DNA of 30,084 nucleotides from a virus (lineage: Duplodnaviria; Heunggongvirae; Uroviricota; Caudoviricetes), in IMG/VR virus record IMGVR_UViG_2908572912_000002. One strand, written 5' to 3'. The stretch's first letter is position 1. Each line of letters begins with the position of its first letter. Of the stretch, positions 2,766 through 23,180 are shown one piece after another. The position numbers and the translations under genes are program-made. The notes under the pieces were generated by a model. It worked only from the letters and a program-made list of their open reading frames with translations. It searched no databases and was not told the origin of the DNA.

Positions 2766-3453
2766 TGGAGCACCTCAAAAACACCATCATACACTAAATC
2801 AGTAAGTTGGCAGCATCACCAGCCTTCTTGAGGCTACCACCTGTTTTCAGGTGTCATTCAGACGTGATTTGCCCCAGATTGGGAAAGCACGCTTTTTTCT
2901 CAGCTATCGTCCTCTTATTTTGCCGTTACATTTCTTTTTGCACTCTAATGATTAATTTACAATAATAATATCGGTAATTATTGAGTAATAATAAATTGAT
3001 TATTGCAAATGTAATTTAATTCCATCTTCGCGTTATATTCCAATCTTTAATCTCCGCATGGAACAAGTTGCATGCGTGACTATATTAAGACAACTTATAA
3101 CCACCAAAACATTTGCTTTGCAAGCAAAAACAGTGACCATTGACTCTAAGAAAATTCCGATCTATTGTTAGGGTCATCAAAGTTACTTAACAGTATTCCG
3201 AAATGAAAATACAAAGCAAGCTAATTGTCTTATTAAACATTATTATTGCATTTATATTATTTGAGCTTTTAGCTCAAAAATTTGGTTTGAGTACATTATT
3301 TTAAAGCAAGATAAACAATATCGGGCACTCTAGTTTTTATAATTAACAATTAAACGTCCATGAAATGTTATTTACTTTTCTTCGCTATTGTCATATCTTA
3401 ATATAGTGGCTTACGCCACTCTACTTTCATCACATTTTGTACGTTTATGTACT

Positions 3454-3749: not shown

Positions 3750-6700
3750 TCAATGTTCGCTTCCTGTTAACTGCCCGACAAGTGCAACCAGTTCGCTTAC
3801 CTGATTTTCCAGAGTGCTGATCCGGGTGCCTGCTGTTGCCAGATTTTTACGTAGCGTTATGTTTTCCTCTTCCAGCGCGGTAACGCGACCATCTGTTTCA
3901 CGGGCGACCTGAACAAGTAACCCCGTCACGGCGGCGTAGTCAACATTCAGATAACGTGTTTCTTCACGTAATTCATTGCCGTCAACCGTTGGTCCCTGCA
4001 ACTCTTCACCGTAATGAGTAAACGATCCCACAGCTTCTGGTATCGCCTCCATTACTTCCTGTGCAATAACGCCAGCATAAGGCATCCCGTTTTCCCTGAG
4101 CGTGTAGGTGTATCCGTTCATTTTACGGATTGCTTTCGTCGCGTCGCTGATAACGAGAATATCGTCTTTAAGGTCGCGGTCTGATGACTGATTCAGCGTT
4201 GTGCAATTAATAGCGCCATTTACATCAAACAACTGGCCTGCTGACGTTTTTTGCGCATAAAACAGATACGCAGCAGACGTTCCAACCTCAAAAACGTTTT
4301 GTCGATCACTTGATCCCCATACTTTTGCGGCAAATGATAGTTCTGTATTACCTAAGTTCTGTAAAACAAAACGATTTCCAGTCCCTGTTTGTTTTGTAAG
4401 AGTTAAATCAACAGTTGAGTTAACCTCATCCTTGTTGATAGTGAGCGCCTGCGCTTTAGCCCCGTTAACAGCACCTGTTTTGAGTTGAACCGCGCCGTCA
4501 TTACCATTTAACAGTATCTCAGCTCCGCTAAAGAAATTTTTTAGCGACAGCATCTTACTTACGCCGACTGATGAACCCAACGCCCACGCGAGAGAATTAC
4601 CGGTGCTATCAAACCCACGTACAAAGCAATCCATTTTGCTATAGTCTGACGTGCTTCCAAGGACATCAATTCGCCCTCCGCCAGATTTTACCGGGTTAGA
4701 TGTGGTTAATGACCTGACAGCAAGATCGGTAGATGAATTGAGATCGTCTACTGTTAGTAATTTCTTCCATTCCTGCGTCGTTCCATTTTCAATTGTTCTT
4801 CCCCAAAAACCGGAATTGCGGCCTCCGAACTGCACAGCATAATTTTTACTAAATTGAACATGAATGCCGCCAAGAACCATAGAACCTGCCGGGCCGTTTG
4901 TACTGCCTGCAATTGGTATAAATTTATTAATGTTATCAGTATGCTGCGTGTTCCAGTCTCGTCCTGTTTTTGTAAGCAGTCCTAATGTCGTGTCGAGCGC
5001 TTCGGTTAAAGTAAGGTTTTTAAATTTAACTGCGCTACTTTCGCCAAGACTTAAGTTGTTTCGCGCATCTTCTACTGTTGTCGCACCTGTACCTCCTTGC
5101 CCAACAGCTAATGGCAACCAGCCAGTGCCATTATGACAACCCCACAAACCAGATTTGGAAACCTGTAAGCGTGGTGCGCCTGAAGAATACGTAGAATATA
5201 CGTAAGTTGTTTCTTTTCCCTCTTCAACCCTTTCTGTTGATACATCTCTCTTCCATTCAGACCAGGTACCGCTTCCTCCTTCATATATTCGTCTATAAGT
5301 AATTCCCGGATTATTATAAGGGTAGTACACCTGAACGCAGGAAGAAGCAGTGTTGGCTCTCGTTTGGAGCACTATTAAAGCGCCCGCCAGACCGATTGGG
5401 TAATTTAATTCTTCTGTTGCGTAAGCGCTCGTTGGTTGTTGATAGAAACCAGAATATTCACCGGTAAGGGTGTTTAGGTCAGTATTAGCAAGGCCAGCTT
5501 TTTGCTCATACATTACCCGCAAGTTCGCACGTGCTTGCTCGATAGTTCTTCCACCAGTACCGCCCTGGGCTAAACCTAACGGAGACCATTGTCCAGAAGA
5601 AGAATCATAAACCCCCCAACTCCCGTTAGTATGGATTTCAAAGAAACGATCACCAGTTGGACCATACATACGAGTTGTTGATTCATTTTGACCAAAGCGG
5701 CTTAATTCATCTCTGCGGGTATGACGTATCCATTGCGGGCCAGAACTTTGGCTGTAAATGTACGAATACAATGATTTTGTATCTGAACCAACAAATAGAC
5801 CGGAATATCTTTTTGTTGACACTTCTGATCTAACTATATAACCAGAAATAAGATTATCACCGGCACTAGACGCTACTGATGGATAACCTTTCGCTGAGAT
5901 GTAAATCCTGACAAATCCAATATAACCTGATGGCTCAACAGAGATATCAGTGCAGGTCATGGCAACTTCACCAAGACCGATATTATCGCCAACAATTACT
6001 TGCGCCTGGTTGCGATAATTAAGTGCGTCCGCCGCAGATTTCGCCGCGTTTGTTTCACTGGATTTAGCATTAGTTTCGCTGGCTTTAGCGTTGGTTTCGC
6101 TGCTCTTTGCTGCTGCCTCGCTATTTTTCGCGTTGGTTTCTGATTTTTTGGCTGCTGTCGCGGAGTTTGCTGATGCAGTTTGTGAGTCTGCTGCCGCCTG
6201 TGCGCTGTTATCTGCATTCGTCTCAGACGTTTTTGCGGCCTTCGCGGAATTTCCTGCCGCCGTTGCCGAGGAAGCTGCACTACTGGCACTTGATGATGCG
6301 TTCGTTTCTGATGATTTCGCTGCCTCTTTTGAGGCCGACGCATCCCGGGCTGAGGTGGCAGCTTCTGACGCTTTCGTGGTCGCGGTGGATGCAGAAGTGG
6401 CTGCTGATTGTTGTGACGCTGCCGCATTCGTTTCTGACGTTTTCGCCGCACCGGCACTGGTAGCCGCCGCGCTTTTTGAGGACTCTGCAGCGGCAGCACT
6501 TTTTGAGGCTTCAGTGGCCTTTGTTGATGCCGTTCCTGCGCTGGAAGACGCTGACTGAGCCGACGAAGCGGCCTGTCCGGCTGACGTGCTGGCTGCACGT
6601 GCTGAATCTGCAGCATCAGTCGCATGGGTTGCCGCCTCACGGGCTGATGTGCTGGCATCGCTGGCTGATTTCTTCGCGGCTGCCGTGTTCTGTGCCACCG

Positions 6701-7860: not shown

Positions 7861-8075
7861 GCTCATTCCACGGACAAAAACAGAGAAAGGAAACGACAGA
7901 GGCCAAAAAGCTCGTTTTCAGCACCTGTCGTTTCCTTTCTTTTCAGGGGGTATTTTAAATAAAAACATTAAGTTACGACGAAGAAGAACGGAAATGCCTT
8001 AAACCGGAAAATTTTCATAAATAGCGAAAACCCGCGAGGTCGCCGCCCCGTAACCTGTCGGATCGCCGGAAAGGA
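7861..8075 (-). other. cos: cos site (cosB with Nu1-binding region, cosN cohesive-end sequence aggtcgccgccc at 8037-8048, cosQ side)
   Basis: Reverse complement of the lambda left end GGGCGGCGACCTCGCGGGTTTTCGCTATTTATGAAAATTTTCCGG... present, contiguous with lambda right-end-like ...cgacaggttacg. Confidence 0.85.
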
Positions 8076-8247
8076 CCCGCAAAATGATAATAATTATCAT
8101 CTGCATGTCACAACGTGCATCTACGCCATCAAACCACGTCAAATAATCAATTATGACGCAGGTATCATATTAATTGATCTGCATCAACTTAACGTAAAAA
8201 CAACTTCAGACAATACAAATCAGCGACACTAAATACGGGACAACCTC

Positions 8248-8481
8248 ATGTCAACGAAGAACAGAACCCGCAGAACAACAATCCGCAACATCCGCTTTCC
8301 TAACCAAATGATTGAACAAATTAACATCGCTCTTGATCAAAAAGGGTCCGGGAATTTCTCAGCCTGGGTCATTGAAGCCTGCCGCCGGAGACTGTGCTCA
8401 GAAAAAAGAGTTTCTCCTGAAGCAAACAAAGAAAAGAGTGACATTACTGAATTGCTCAGAAAACAGATCAGACCAGATTGA
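8248..8481 (+). CDS. small hypothetical protein, basic N-terminus, possible DNA-binding (lambda right-end ORF-like)
   Basis: 77-aa ORF MSTKNRTRRTTIRNIRFPNQMIEQINIALDQKGSGNFSAWVIEACRRR...; position between cos and Rz on the strand opposite the late genes. Confidence 0.5.
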   Translation: MSTKNRTRRTTIRNIRFPNQMIEQINIALDQKGSGNFSAWVIEACRRRLCSEKRVSPEANKEKSDITELLRKQIRPD

Positions 8482-8522
8482 AGCAATTTAGATAATCGTG
8501 CAGACTACGCCCCTCATATCAC

Positions 8523-8948
8523 ATGGAAGGTACTACAATGGCTCAGGTTGCCATTTTTAAACAAATATTCGATAAAGTGCGAAATAATTTAAACTATCAC
8601 TGGTTTTATTCTGAACTAAAACGTCACAATGTCTCACATTACATTTACTATTTAGCTACAGAGAATATTCATCTTGTTCTTGAAAACGATAATACGGTTT
8701 TAATAAAAGGACAGGGTAAGGTTGTAAATGTAAGATTTTCAAAAAATAAATGCCTTATAGAAGCCACCTTAAAAGGATTCAAATCAGGAGAGTTATCATT
8801 TTACGAATACAGGAAAAATCTTGCTACAGCAGGGGTTTTCAGATGGATTACAAATATCCACGAAAACAAAAGGTATTACTATACCTTTGATAATTCATTA
8901 CTCTTTACTGAGAACATTCAGAACACTACACAAATATTTCCGCACTAA
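8523..8948 (+). CDS. DUF1398-family protein (YdfO/YbcV-like prophage protein)
   Basis: 141-aa ORF; [42 protein letters not shown]...[24 protein letters not shown] resembles E. coli YdfO/YbcV as recalled; true start may be the internal Met (MAQVAIF). Confidence 0.7.
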
Positions 8949-9439
8949 ATCATAACGTCCGGTTTCTTCCGTGCCAGAACCGGACTCGCTGGCATGATGA
9001 AATATGTGTACCCGGTAACCCCGGTGTGCATCGTTTTTGATTATTCCCGCACACTCGCGCAGAAGGAGTTCCCCGTCGGGCTACGGTCTCTGTTAATACG
9101 GGAATACGGCGACGATACAGCGCATGATGTGTCAGGCTTGAATACCTTTATCCTTTAAAAGGGATATCAGTTAAGTTATCCCGTGTAGGGTATAAACCAT
9201 TATCAAAGCCACTCTGTAGGAAGTGGCTTTTGTAATGGCAATAAAAAGCCCCGCGAATGCGAGGCTAAATCCTGGTATTTGTAATGACTGGTTCTTATCT
9301 CAACGCAGCCCCTTACCGCGCGCAAAATGCTCAATATCAAGCATCAGCAATGAGATGTTTAATCTGGATTCACTCCAGAAGTGAGCACCACCCTGTCTAC
9401 AGAGCCAGATGTGAAGGATGATGAGTAAAATTATCGCTA

Positions 9440-19476: not shown

Positions 19477-20831
<1,355 letters not shown>

Positions 20832-20994: not shown

Positions 20995-21026
20995 ATGCTC
21001 TTAAAAATTAAGCCCTGAAGAAGGGC
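20995..21026 (+). promoter_or_regulatory. nutL: nutL (boxA tgctcttaaaaattaa plus boxB hairpin gccctgaagaagggc)
   Basis: Sequence matches lambda nutL as recalled; upstream of N. Confidence 0.85.
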
Positions 21027-21184: not shown

Positions 21185-21508
21185 ATGGATGCACAAACAC
21201 GCCGCCGCGAACGTCGCGCAGAGAAACAGGCTCAATGGAAAGCAGCAAATCCCCTGTTGGTTGGGGTAAGCGCAAAACCAGTTAACCGCCCTATTCTCTC
21301 GCTGAATCGCAAACCGAAATCACGAGTAGAAAGCGCACTGAATCCGATAGACCTTACGGTGCTGGCTGAATACCACGAACAGATTGAAAGCAACCTGCAA
21401 CGTATTGAGCGCAAGAATCATCGAGTTTGGTATAGCAAGCCAAGTGAGTTCGGTATAACTTGTCAAGGAAGACAAAAGGTTAAAGGGAAATCCATTCCAT
21501 TGGCATGA
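21185..21508 (+). CDS. N: antitermination protein N
   Basis: From internal Met of ORF 21107-21508: MDAQTRRRERRAEKQAQWKAANPLLVGVSAKPVNRPILSLNRKPKSRVESALNPIDLTVLAEYH... Confidence 0.95.
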   Translation: MDAQTRRRERRAEKQAQWKAANPLLVGVSAKPVNRPILSLNRKPKSRVESALNPIDLTVLAEYHEQIESNLQRIERKNHRVWYSKPSEFGITCQGRQKVKGKSIPLA

Positions 21509-22386
21509 GGTACGTAATGAAGAAAATTGATTACAAGTCCATACCAAAACCAATAGACTCAGCATCAGAGCGAAAAAAACACAAAAAAGAGGCTGAAAAA
21601 TTAGCAAATTATATCAGTTTTATTAGAAACAATGCTCACGGCGATGGCGACAGGAAGTTGCTTTCAGATGCCCGGACCCAAGCGTTCAGCATACTTCGTA
21701 AGCAGATGCAATATCGTCTTCATCCAGGCTACATAATTGAAATTCGCCCGACTGAAAGACAATTGTTCTTATTAAACTCTGTCTTTGACTTTGTAAACGT
21801 AGTTGGAGATCTTATCGACAGGTCTGTAGATAAGGCTCCTGATACAAATAGTTTTCTTCTAACAAATAAAGAATACTTATATGGTAAATTTGGTATAAAC
21901 GGATGGCAAAAATATGTACGATTCTTACGTGCATTCGTTGATGCGTATAAAAATTCCGACATGATTTATACATATTTGCCTGGTGGTAATAATTGTACGC
22001 TTTCGGCAGACAATAGAATATTCATACCTATACTTGGTCTTGGGCTGATTAATGCAGTAAATGAAAGAGATGTTATAATTGTTAAGCAGTGGCGAAAGCA
22101 TGAGGGATATAGATATCTGCCATGCTTTGATATATTAAAAATACAGAATAAATTCTATGTAAAAATTAAATATAAAGAAGATGTTTTCTTCCTCAGAAAA
22201 AACAAAGATCTTTTACAAGAACTTTCTGGGACAATAGATGTCATCGTAGGTTCTAGGTTTATAAAAGAACTGAAAGAAAGCAGGTCTTTCTCTCGTGTAG
22301 AGATAAGCGAGTCAGAGTTATGGGGTATATCAAATAATCCTGTAAACCACGCTCACCAACGAAATCCAAACAAAAAGTGGTCATAA
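21505..22386 (+). CDS. hypothetical 293-aa protein (low-GC moron) occupying the sieB/ral position between N and ea10; function unknown
   Basis: ORF overlaps N stop; probable start at 21517 (MKKIDYK) with SD gagg; own terminator at 22387-22410; no lambda counterpart recognised. Confidence 0.7.
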   Translation: MRYVMKKIDYKSIPKPIDSASERKKHKKEAEKLANYISFIRNNAHGDGDRKLLSDARTQAFSILRKQMQYRLHPGYIIEIRPTERQLFLLNSVFDFVNVVGDLIDRSVDKAPDTNSFLLTNKEYLYGKFGINGWQKYVRFLRAFVDAYKNSDMIYTYLPGGNNCTLSADNRIFIPILGLGLINAVNERDVIIVKQWRKHEGYRYLPCFDILKIQNKFYVKIKYKEDVFFLRKNKDLLQELSGTIDVIVGSRFIKELKESRSFSRVEISESELWGISNNPVNHAHQRNPNKKWS

Positions 22387-22410
22387 CCCGCTCAGGCGGG
22401 TTTCATTTTC
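22387..22410 (+). terminator. Rho-independent terminator directly after the 293-aa gene
   Basis: cccgc-tcag-gcggg followed by tttcatttt. Confidence 0.6.
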
Positions 22411-22528
22411 ACGCAAACAACAGAATAAACACTGCACTGTGTATTCATTCCAACGAGTGAATACACGGAGCAATGTCGCTCGTAACTAAACAGGAGTCGA
22501 CTTGTTCTGATTATTGGAAATCTTCTTT

Positions 22529-22556
22529 GCCCTCCAGTATGAGGGCGATTTTTTAT
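22529..22556 (+). terminator. Rho-independent terminator upstream of ea10 (tL2-like)
   Basis: gccctc-cagtatg-agggc followed by gatttttta. Confidence 0.55.
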
Positions 22557-22574
22557 CTGTGAGGATATGAATAG

Positions 22575-22943
22575 ATGTCAAACATAAAAAAATACATCAT
22601 TGATTACGACTGGAAAGCATCAATAGAAATTGAAATCGACCATGACGTAATGACAGAGGAAAAACTTTACCAGATTAATAATTTCTGGTCAGACTCTGAA
22701 TACCGACTCAATAAACACGGCTCTGTATTAAATGCTGTATTAATCATGCTGGCGCAACATGCTCTGCTTATAGCAATTTCAAGCGACTTAAATGCATATG
22801 GTGTTGTGTGTGAGTTCGACTGGAATGATGGAAATGGTCAGGAAGGATGGCCTCCAATGGATGGTAGCGAAGGAATAAGAATTACCGATATCGATACATC
22901 AGGAATATTTGATCCAGATGATATGACTATCAAAGCCGCCTGA
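22575..22943 (+). CDS. ea10: Ea10 (lambda early protein, Ssb-like)
   Basis: 122-aa MSNIKKYIIDYDWKASIEIEIDHDVMTEEKLYQINNFWSDSEYRLNKHGSVLNAVL... as in lambda Ea10. Confidence 0.85.
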   Translation: MSNIKKYIIDYDWKASIEIEIDHDVMTEEKLYQINNFWSDSEYRLNKHGSVLNAVLIMLAQHALLIAISSDLNAYGVVCEFDWNDGNGQEGWPPMDGSEGIRITDIDTSGIFDPDDMTIKAA

Positions 22944-23015
22944 GCGCGGCGTTACCGCATACCAATAACGCTTCACTCGAGGCGTTTTTCGTTATGTATA
23001 AATAAGGAGCACACC

Positions 23016-23180
23016 ATGCAATATGCCATTGCAGGGTGGCCTGTTGCTGGCTGCCCTTCCGAATCTTTACTTGAACGAATCACCCGTAAATTACGTGACG
23101 GATGGAAACGCCTTATCGACATACTTAATCAGCCAGGAGTCCCAAAAAATGGATCAAACACTTATGGCTATCCAGACTAA
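23016..23180 (+). CDS. cIII: CIII (FtsH inhibitor protecting CII)
   Basis: Hand translation [54 protein letters not shown] (54 aa). Confidence 0.85.
   Translation: MQYAIAGWPVAGCPSESLLERITRKLRDGWKRLIDILNQPGVPKNGSNTYGYPD

Follow-up and report, generated by a model that had tools for sequence, protein, structure and literature searches.

A pL-operon gene of a phage-434/lambda mosaic prophage joins a predicted TnpB-type WED-REC lobe to the polymerase-arrest peptide of Nun

The window analyzed here, the whole 30,084-nucleotide stretch of viral DNA deposited as IMG/VR record IMGVR_UViG_2908572912_000002, is a phage-434/lambda mosaic prophage in which the pL operon reads left to right. The gene under study lies in this operon between N and ea10, and its product ends in the RNA polymerase arrest peptide of HK022 Nun and is modeled to contain a WED-REC lobe of the TnpB/Cas12 type; it is referred to below as the long Nun-tail gene, and the protein as the long form. 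The upstream antiterminator gene N (21185–21508, + strand) is of the lambda type, judging from the match of its translation to lambda N, and bears the annotation N in phage 434. The open reading frame (ORF) after N (21505–22386, + strand) comprises 293 aa from its first ATG. The functional start is almost certainly the ATG at 21517, because it is preceded, at a spacing of 6 nt, by a GAGG Shine-Dalgarno sequence (21507–21510, + strand), and because the resulting length of 289 aa matches that of the phage 434 coding sequence, of the PHROGs family phrog_12139 and of the main protein cluster (1042 members, 289 aa). The GAGG overlaps the N stop codon (TGA, 21506–21508), and a ribosome-binding site is annotated at the equivalent place in the phage 434 record. 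The coding sequence thus runs from 21517 to 22386 on the + strand (289 aa plus stop), beginning 9 nt beyond the N stop codon. The same ATG, with its Shine-Dalgarno sequence, had been given as the probable start by the initial annotation.

The long form is the orthologue of phage 434 CPT_434_48 (UMO75312.1), and matches phrog_12139, a family of unknown function, over profile positions 1–289 with an E-value of 3 × 10−203. Phage 434 DNA (GenBank record) is 97.7% identical to the window. Lambda DNA aligns to both flanks only, and in lambda the interval is occupied by sieB and ral, so the gene was correctly placed at the sieB/ral position by the initial annotation. Its AT-rich composition, also pointed out there, is evident from a G–C content of 35.1% (30.7% at third codon positions); the window as a whole has 45.3%, N 48% and bet/exo 52%. 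The protein is basic (isoelectric point, pI, 9.65). Downstream of ea10 (22575–22943) are cIII, gam, bet and exo. No paper on this phage 434 gene, on such a Nun homologue or linking TnpB with Nun was found in the literature searched. The gene is not entirely undescribed, as its product name in the GenBank record of phage 434, "Nun C-terminal peptide-containing protein", points to the Nun peptide; this name, with nothing further stated there, is the only prior notice of the gene.

Sequence comparison revealed that the C-terminal end of the long form (aa 276–289, VNHAHQRNPNKKWS; 22342–22383, + strand) is identical in 14 out of 14 residues to residues 96–109 of HK022 Nun (P18683; PDB 6ALG chain N; phrog_5632), the RNA polymerase arrest peptide of the Nun family, and that all of the polymerase-binding and arrest residues are kept. 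The last 20–27 residues match the C-terminus of Nun by phmmer (to PDB 6ALG chain N), in phrog_5632 and by hhalign (probability, 97.8%), and only these residues align to the Nun family. When the long family was compared with Nun by hhalign, only the last 26 columns were aligned and the N-terminus was left out. The residues concerned are well characterized in Nun. Residues 87–109 hold all of the known arrest determinants; on entering the cleft of RNA polymerase, the C-terminal segment prevents translocation, and Nun deprived of its last 13 residues shows neither polymerase binding nor activity (PMC5386594). Nun residues 102–109 occupy a pocket beside the β′ rudder, the contacts of N97, H98 and H100 are with RNA, template DNA and the rudder, those of K106, K107 and W108 are with DNA, and R102 forms a pair with the C-terminal carboxylate, while the N103A substitution, a control in that paper, is neutral (PMC5386594).

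The same residues are conserved in divergent relatives of the long form. In homologues that were found by full-length similarity and share 68, 49, 42 and 36% identity with the long form, V276, N277, H278, A279, H280, R282, K286, K287 and W288 are invariant (Nun V96, N97, H98, A99, H100, R102, K106, K107 and W108), whereas the positions equal to Nun Q101, N103, P104 and N105 vary. The proportion of synonymous differences (pS) in the tail codons is 0.64–1.2 and that of nonsynonymous differences (pN) is 0–0.15, as compared with a pN of 0.2–0.4 for the whole protein, and the codon usage of the tail differs between lineages. Since the functional residues are invariant, the neutral positions vary and the synonymous sites are saturated, the tail is kept by selection, and no other part of the protein is as strongly constrained. 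On the DNA level, near-identity to the HK022-type phage O276 begins at position 22341, at the V96 codon, and continues through the hairpin that follows the gene up to the IS903 insertion point in O276. A recombination scar was therefore considered as a source of the tail, and was ruled out by the invariant functional residues, the varying neutral positions and the different codons.

The remainder of the protein was examined by structure prediction. An AlphaFold (AF2) model obtained with a 32-sequence alignment, to which sequences from an exhaustive hidden Markov model (HMM) search had been added, has a mean predicted local distance difference test score (pLDDT) of 81.7 and about 90 for residues 11–225, with a disordered tail; an alignment of five sequences gave a pLDDT of 50 and was unusable. 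The folded body thus comprises 215 confidently modeled residues, and past the WED part the model has one helix and the disordered tail. The basic N-terminal extension (aa 1–68; 21517–21720, + strand; pI 10.1), which the alignment shows in the Nun-tailed subfamily only, is modeled as a helical hairpin (helices 16–38 and 43–65). Residues 69–220 (21721–22176, + strand; pLDDT about 90) are predicted to form a TnpB/Cas12-type WED-REC lobe, in the order β1 (71–77), an inserted helical REC bundle (80–145) and the WED β-strands with one flanking helix (152–219). A long connecting helix (aa 221–259; 22177–22293, + strand), modeled with lower confidence (pLDDT 38–76), would link body and tail as an arm. 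It is partly overlapped by the motif ESRSFSRVEIS (aa 254–264; 22276–22308, + strand), which is kept across the superfamily and reads SKxYSRVDF in distant relatives; the residues P78, Q82, L86, F90, L114, L115, C160, S161, S163, Y200 and F204 are near-invariant in the superfamily.

Fold searches were concordant in three libraries, PDB and BFVD among them. All of the top ten Foldseek matches in PDB are Cas12 proteins, albeit with weak E-values (0.06–0.24), and the best matches in BFVD include giant-virus "transposases" of the TnpB/Fanzor type. In the published domain arrangement of ISDra2 TnpB, REC is inserted into WED after β1 (WED(β1)-REC-WED), and the WED/REC cleft holds the duplex of the transposon-adjacent motif (TAM). 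The model likewise has a WED OB-fold barrel with a REC bundle between β1 and β2, the arrangement by which the REC lobe of TnpB/Cas12 is recognized, and shares the WED barrel and the REC position after β1 with TnpB and miniature Cas12 (ISDra2 TnpB, 8H1J/8EXA; RdCas12n, 9UDI; ISFba1 TnpB, 8IAZ; Cas12p, 9JG3). In contrast to the RuvC domain, TNB zinc finger and NUC lobe of those proteins, none of the three is present in the long form: neither the D-E-D triad of RuvC nor a TNB zinc ribbon was found in the model, and PF01385 and PF07282 gave no match. Conversely, TnpB and Cas12 carry no polymerase-arrest tail.

At the sequence level, hhalign against a TnpB N-lobe profile gave one collinear alignment of 118 columns that is not significant (E-value, 0.021; probability, 2%), and single-sequence and profile-profile comparisons with TnpB gave E-values of 0.02–0.03 at a probability of about 2%. 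The motifs L-x-P-x-x-x-Q and (I/L)P-x-LG are in structural register with RLYPxxxQ and KLPKLG of TnpB, again without significant statistics. The assignment to TnpB thus rests on structure, as the sequence-level statistics are not significant; on the model, the WED-REC fold is solid, and common descent of the body with TnpB is likely. Scans of the protein and at least ten relatives against Pfam, NCBIfam and PADLOC gave no match, the Pfam TnpB models PF12323 and PF01385 gave none at E-values up to 10, and the PADLOC-DB 2.0 defense models gave zero matches at E-values up to 10 for the protein and ten relatives. In PHROGs, beyond the family of unknown function, only the 20-residue Nun match was found. 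The earlier view that the protein has no conserved motif, leaving its function open, is contradicted both by the identity of its 14 C-terminal residues to the polymerase-binding peptide of Nun and by the predicted TnpB/Cas12-type WED-REC body.

Elements typical of TnpB loci were not found around the gene. At gathering thresholds, Rfam detected no guide-type RNA near the gene and nothing in three homologous loci; no insertion sequence (IS) ends and no ωRNA-like element were found at the locus. BLAST comparison of the flanks of seven divergent loci revealed only N upstream, and the tail codons and terminator downstream. The exhaustive search yielded neither TnpB-length relatives nor RuvC remnants. 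The basic N-terminus (SERKKHKKEAEKLANY) was also considered as a cryptic arginine-rich motif, which was rejected as unsupported, since an HMM of ten short-Nun N-termini scores the long forms at the level of shuffled sequences; in the long family this region is Lys-rich and poorly conserved.

The lambda-type nutL boxB (GCCCTGAAGAAGGGC) is found at 21012–21026, downstream of oL/pL. Between N and the long Nun-tail gene there is neither a promoter nor a terminator, and promoter-like matches that could serve the gene itself occur at the frequency of shuffled sequence, none of them suitably placed. Directly after the stop codon, a terminator-like hairpin (AACCCGCTCAGGCGGGTT followed by TCATTTTCAC; 22385–22412, + strand) is present, which is common to HK022-type nun genes; the T tract after the hairpin proper (22385–22402) is interrupted (TTTCATTTT), while nearly all nun-type genes elsewhere have a cleaner terminator at the equivalent place. 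A second, stronger intrinsic terminator (22527–22558, + strand; also delimited as 22527–22548) lies upstream of ea10, and its equivalents are annotated as "terminator" in phage 434 and as tL2a in O276. Between the two terminators, a 9-bp inverted repeat (GTGTATTCA … TGAATACAC; 22440–22468, + strand) is located within DNA that is common to lambda and HK022-type phages, upstream of ea10. The first terminator downstream of pL therefore comes only past the long Nun-tail gene. In five of the six lineages, the long form abuts the N gene or an N remnant within 1–9 nt, and as no promoter was seen, it has the appearance of an immediate-early gene of pL that is expressed together with N, and not evidently of a lysogen-expressed unit. 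The initial annotation had seen in the gene a classic moron with its own intrinsic terminator: the atypical composition and the terminator-like hairpin directly after the stop codon bear this out, but the lack of a detectable promoter and the start 9 nt after the N stop codon do not.

The Nun-tailed relatives fall into long and short forms. Long forms are found directly after an N gene with a lambda-like arginine-rich motif in the window and in three other loci (L003, L006 and L086), and directly after an N gene with a different arginine-rich motif in locus L109. In locus L004, a phage without N, the first gene to follow a pL-like promoter is the long form, which thereby takes the position of nun. 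Here, the pL-like promoter is separated from the GTG start codon of the long homologue by a GC-rich leader of about 200 nt (2904–3110), possibly a put-like antiterminator RNA, in which Rfam found nothing. In the Morganella morganii type (L142), which occurs on dozens of M. morganii contigs, the long gene (5001–5873) adjoins NinG/Q in opposite orientation and is preceded at a distance of 6 nt by an N remnant (4858–4995) that retains the C-terminal ~40 codons only. Given the truncated N and the rearranged surroundings, the long gene has persisted in a prophage that is rearranged and probably defective. Altogether, the long form occurs with at least three types of N/arginine-rich motif and once without N. 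Locus L003 carries in tandem N, the long form (8001–8873) and a short form with an arginine-rich motif and the tail, the last being an uncalled ORF of 102 aa (9037–9345, + strand; arginine-rich motif, SKGRRRALRMQQRR; Nun tail, VVNHAHQRRPNKKWS).

A codon-pattern scan of IMG/VR for Nun-tail proteins identified 52 distinct tail-bearing proteins, which include classic Nun and many other proteins of 79–109 aa with an arginine-rich motif. In tail-bearers of 88 aa, the N-terminal two-thirds resemble lambda N (MDAQARRREKRKEKQEEWK…). The short Nun-tail proteins (loci L007–L126, e.g., L034, L036, L045, L046, L081, L011, L019 and L009) have at least eight different arginine-rich N-termini, far more diverse than HK022 Nun, and nearly all of their genes are followed immediately by a strong intrinsic terminator. 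As the same tail is found on differing N-termini, it is a module joined to different targeting parts.

Of 5426 complete E. coli genomes, 106 carry the long Nun-tail gene, always on the chromosome. The exact protein is found on 550 contigs, and the gene on more than 500 Escherichia contigs. Full-length homologues, all named "hypothetical protein", occur in Escherichia, Pantoea and Morganella, the divergent members being those of Pantoea and Morganella. The ratio of nonsynonymous to synonymous substitution rates (dN/dS) is 0.23 against the phage 434 copy and 0.05 between two Pantoea-type copies; between lineages that are still 41–68% identical in protein the synonymous sites are saturated, and the architecture is constant at 288–290 aa across the three genera. 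The gene is thus real and under purifying selection, its synteny with N is conserved, and the family is accessory and narrowly distributed.

A more distant set of relatives was recovered by the exhaustive HMM search, in which the profile was built solely from Nun-tailed members. The search returned 27 proteins, among them a distant set of 210–330 aa (E-values, 5 × 10−18 to 1 × 10−4) that matches positions ~73–220/279. These proteins (P0011–P0039) share 16–26% identity with the long form, have no or a different N-terminal extension and lack the Nun tail. Instead, their C-terminus reads S-K-x-Y-S-R-V-D-F-x-x-L-E-G-R-x-V-x-G-G-L-P-S-L-G-K-R-R, the first half of which is homologous to the phage 434 motif ESRSFSRVEIS; the pre-tail motif S-x-S-(F/Y)-S-R-V-(D/E) is common to both branches, and the conserved terminal peptide is GGLPSLGKRR. 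The core is homologous in the two branches, while the terminal peptide differs and the contexts are not those of phages. On metagenome contigs L127–L130, L132 and L135, relatives of 276–288 aa that end in GGLPSLGKRR (P0031, P0033, P0035 and P0036) sit between BrxC/PglY and a PglX-type methyltransferase, in operons resembling bacteriophage exclusion (BREX) systems that also encode BrxB, two unknown proteins, HSP70 and a second, MmeI-type methyltransferase. The GG…GKRR tail is invariant in these BREX-embedded WED-REC proteins, for which PADLOC, Pfam and NCBIfam hold no model. Other distant relatives are found in variable islands with DISARM-like, toxin-antitoxin, helicase or methyltransferase genes. 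One of these relatives, P0024 (239 aa), is identical in loci L138–L140 despite different neighbors (a toxin-antitoxin-like gene, DUF4365, an AAA_11/12 helicase, an N6_N4 methyltransferase and HNH), which suggests a mobile stand-alone gene. A search of genome contigs revealed one locus with a distant relative, in a Dechloromonas metagenome-assembled genome, and no BREX genes were present there.

With regard to other features of the window, the 434 repressor gene (19798–20430) lies upstream of oL/pL and is followed by phage 434 hex, coding for the repressor protection protein (20355–20831, + strand). The longest ORF of hex is 158 aa and starts within cI; according to the 434 record, in which the original paper is said to have inferred a wrong start codon, the start is later, at ~20427, and the product has 134 aa. 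The sole Rfam match above the gathering threshold in the window is Lambda_thermo, the cIII thermoregulator (23003–23061, + strand; 88.5 bits).

Based on the tail, the modeled body and the genomic context, we consider it somewhat probable that the gene encodes a "long Nun", that is, a modular RNA polymerase arrest factor of the Nun type in which a nucleic-acid-binding lobe derived from TnpB serves as the targeting module; the biological purpose of the protein is held less firmly than the arrest mechanism. The body (aa 69–220) would correspond to the lobe that in TnpB grips the TAM duplex and part of the guide RNA, here acting as a recognition module without a nuclease, and would bring the protein to a specific element, in nascent RNA or in DNA, near an elongating RNA polymerase. 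A flexible arm, consisting of the helix 221–259 and about 16 disordered residues, would then deliver the 14-residue Nun peptide to the active-site cleft of the polymerase, where the peptide may cross-link the enzyme to the nucleic-acid scaffold and block translocation as in HK022 Nun. We infer that the tail binds RNA polymerase in its new context and that the body binds nucleic acid. The likely role would be to silence a competing phage or mobile element at the level of transcription, presumably with an exclusion phenotype, and the phage's own complexes would be spared because the target is absent from them, because they are modified by N, or both. A part in such conflicts is consistent with the location of the gene in the sieB/ral slot, with the distant relatives in BREX-like operons and defense islands, and with the retention of the gene beside a truncated N in Morganella. 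The initial annotation had singled the gene out as the best candidate for a conflict gene, a proposal that is strengthened by the Nun arrest tail, the accessory nature of the family and the setting of its distant relatives.

The long form and Nun have several features in common. Both are encoded in the pL operon of lambdoid phages, the long form of L004 is even found at the nun position, and the hairpin after the stop codon and the 3′ DNA are shared. They differ in size (289 aa as opposed to 109 aa for Nun and typically ~90–115 aa in the Nun family) and in the targeting part, as Nun has a boxB-binding arginine-rich motif and a disordered linker where the long form is predicted to have a 150-aa WED-REC lobe and shows, judging from its sequence, no recognizable arginine-rich motif. 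In addition, Nun, which is made in the repressed prophage and excludes a heterologous phage, has a promoter of its own, P(Nun), annotated in O276, whereas none was detected for the long form, which, unlike Nun, lies downstream of N in a phage that uses lambda nut sites itself. Lambda sieB/ral and P22 sieB occupy the same slot between N and ea10 and are likewise accessory genes in a conflict slot, but have no sequence or fold relationship to the long form, and act in abortive infection or restriction alleviation as opposed to the proposed polymerase arrest. Nuclease-inactive TnpB-like repressors (TldRs) still have their RuvC lobe, in inactivated form, as well as a guide RNA, and prevent initiation by DNA binding. 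They are RNA-guided transcription factors (bioRxiv 10.64898/2026.09.22.753285), and the likeness is one of concept only: a TnpB-derived, nuclease-less protein for which interference with transcription is predicted. In contrast to TldRs, the long form lacks the whole NUC lobe and has no evident guide RNA, and its effector would be a peptide acting on the elongating polymerase, which it jams.

A number of observations weigh against a long Nun. The linker from the folded body to the tail is much shorter than in Nun, and Nun residues 87–95, including H93 and R94, which make upstream-DNA contacts, are not conserved in the long form. The basic N-terminal region is not significantly similar to the arginine-rich motifs of Nun or N, the likeness to TnpB is structural only (sequence-level E-value, 0.02; probability, 2%), and Rfam and flank comparison revealed no candidate guide or target RNA beside the gene. 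As the gene has no promoter of its own and starts 9 nt after the N stop codon, the protein may, unlike Nun, be absent from a repressed lysogen. Finally, how the prophage, with a lambda-type nut and N of its own, would avoid harming itself is conjecture. A wider version of the long Nun proposal, according to which an exapted TnpB REC lobe programs where the polymerase is jammed and the long form is the phage branch of a superfamily of RuvC-less TnpB REC lobes, is put forward only tentatively. WED-REC would then recognize a TAM-like DNA motif or a structured or guide RNA and bring the Nun peptide to the polymerase, while the other branch of the superfamily, whose proteins end in GGLPSLGKRR, would serve BREX-like defense operons as a component.

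The tight coupling to N in five of the six lineages, with nothing between the two genes, and the position of the first terminator past pL would suit an immediate-early protein that jams the polymerases of the host or of a co-resident prophage broadly in the lytic phase, rather than a defense expressed in the lysogen; N-modified complexes would be immune, since N fills the same polymerase cleft. Shut-off of host transcription is not known from lambdoid phages, and a non-specific action would hardly account for a large, conserved recognition lobe, although Nun at high concentration does arrest polymerase non-specifically and is toxic (PMC5386594). As L004 has the long gene without N and the Morganella copy persists beside a truncated N, such a lytic shut-off appears rather unlikely. 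The antagonism of Nun and N on the same complexes (PMC5386594), together with the early pL position and the terminators directly after the gene, might instead point to a self-regulator of the pL operon that recognizes an element in the early RNA or the DNA of its own phage and stops leftward transcription by arrest or termination, thereby tuning N read-through or the lysis-lysogeny decision. Such a regulator would hardly be expected to be accessory and of foreign base composition, and lambda and most of its relatives carry sieB/ral or other genes in its place; moreover, the occurrence of the long form with at least three types of N/arginine-rich motif, and once without N, argues against a co-evolved cis target, so that self-regulation is judged unlikely.

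Slightly less credit still is given to an anti-defense function, or another kind of nucleic-acid binding in which the tail is secondary and the protein mimics or poisons a component of host defense or sequesters RNA, comparable to ral, which modulates restriction from this slot in lambda. Relatives are indeed found between BrxC and PglX in several contigs; however, they are only 16–26% identical and have a different tail, the BREX variant was seen on metagenome contigs and not in Enterobacterales, the Dechloromonas locus lacks BREX genes, and the Nun tail would not be expected to be the most constrained part of the protein. The AT-rich, foreign composition and the DNA identity with HK022-type nun that starts exactly at the tail codons could also be left by a truncated TnpB of an old IS, joined in frame to the 3′ end of nun by recombination and now decaying without function. 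This reading, which was rejected on the dN/dS values (0.05–0.23) and the conserved architecture of 288–290 aa in Escherichia, Pantoea and Morganella, is highly improbable also in view of the conservation of the tail protein while synonymous sites are saturated, and of the lack of TnpB-length relatives and RuvC remnants in the exhaustive search.

Until now, Nun has been regarded as a singular case, a small peptide with an arginine-rich motif that is specific to HK022 and aimed at lambda. The arrest peptide appears instead to be a portable warhead, able to serve with quite different targeting modules. The tail-swapped family in BREX-like operons represents an unannotated defense-associated component. 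The long Nun-tail gene resides in phage 434, a founding model phage, which raises the question of which phages or host genes phage 434 silences by means of it. If the wider version of the long Nun proposal is true, the protein would direct elongation arrest by nucleic-acid recognition in a way that is distinct from both the arginine-rich-motif/boxB system of Nun and the RuvC-dead TldRs. Should its targeting module be confirmed as the recognition half of TnpB/Cas12 without the nuclease, the protein would represent a third evolutionary fate of TnpB, in addition to Cas12 and TldR, tying transposon-derived nucleic-acid recognition to the control of transcription elongation, and would offer a natural scaffold for directing polymerase arrest.

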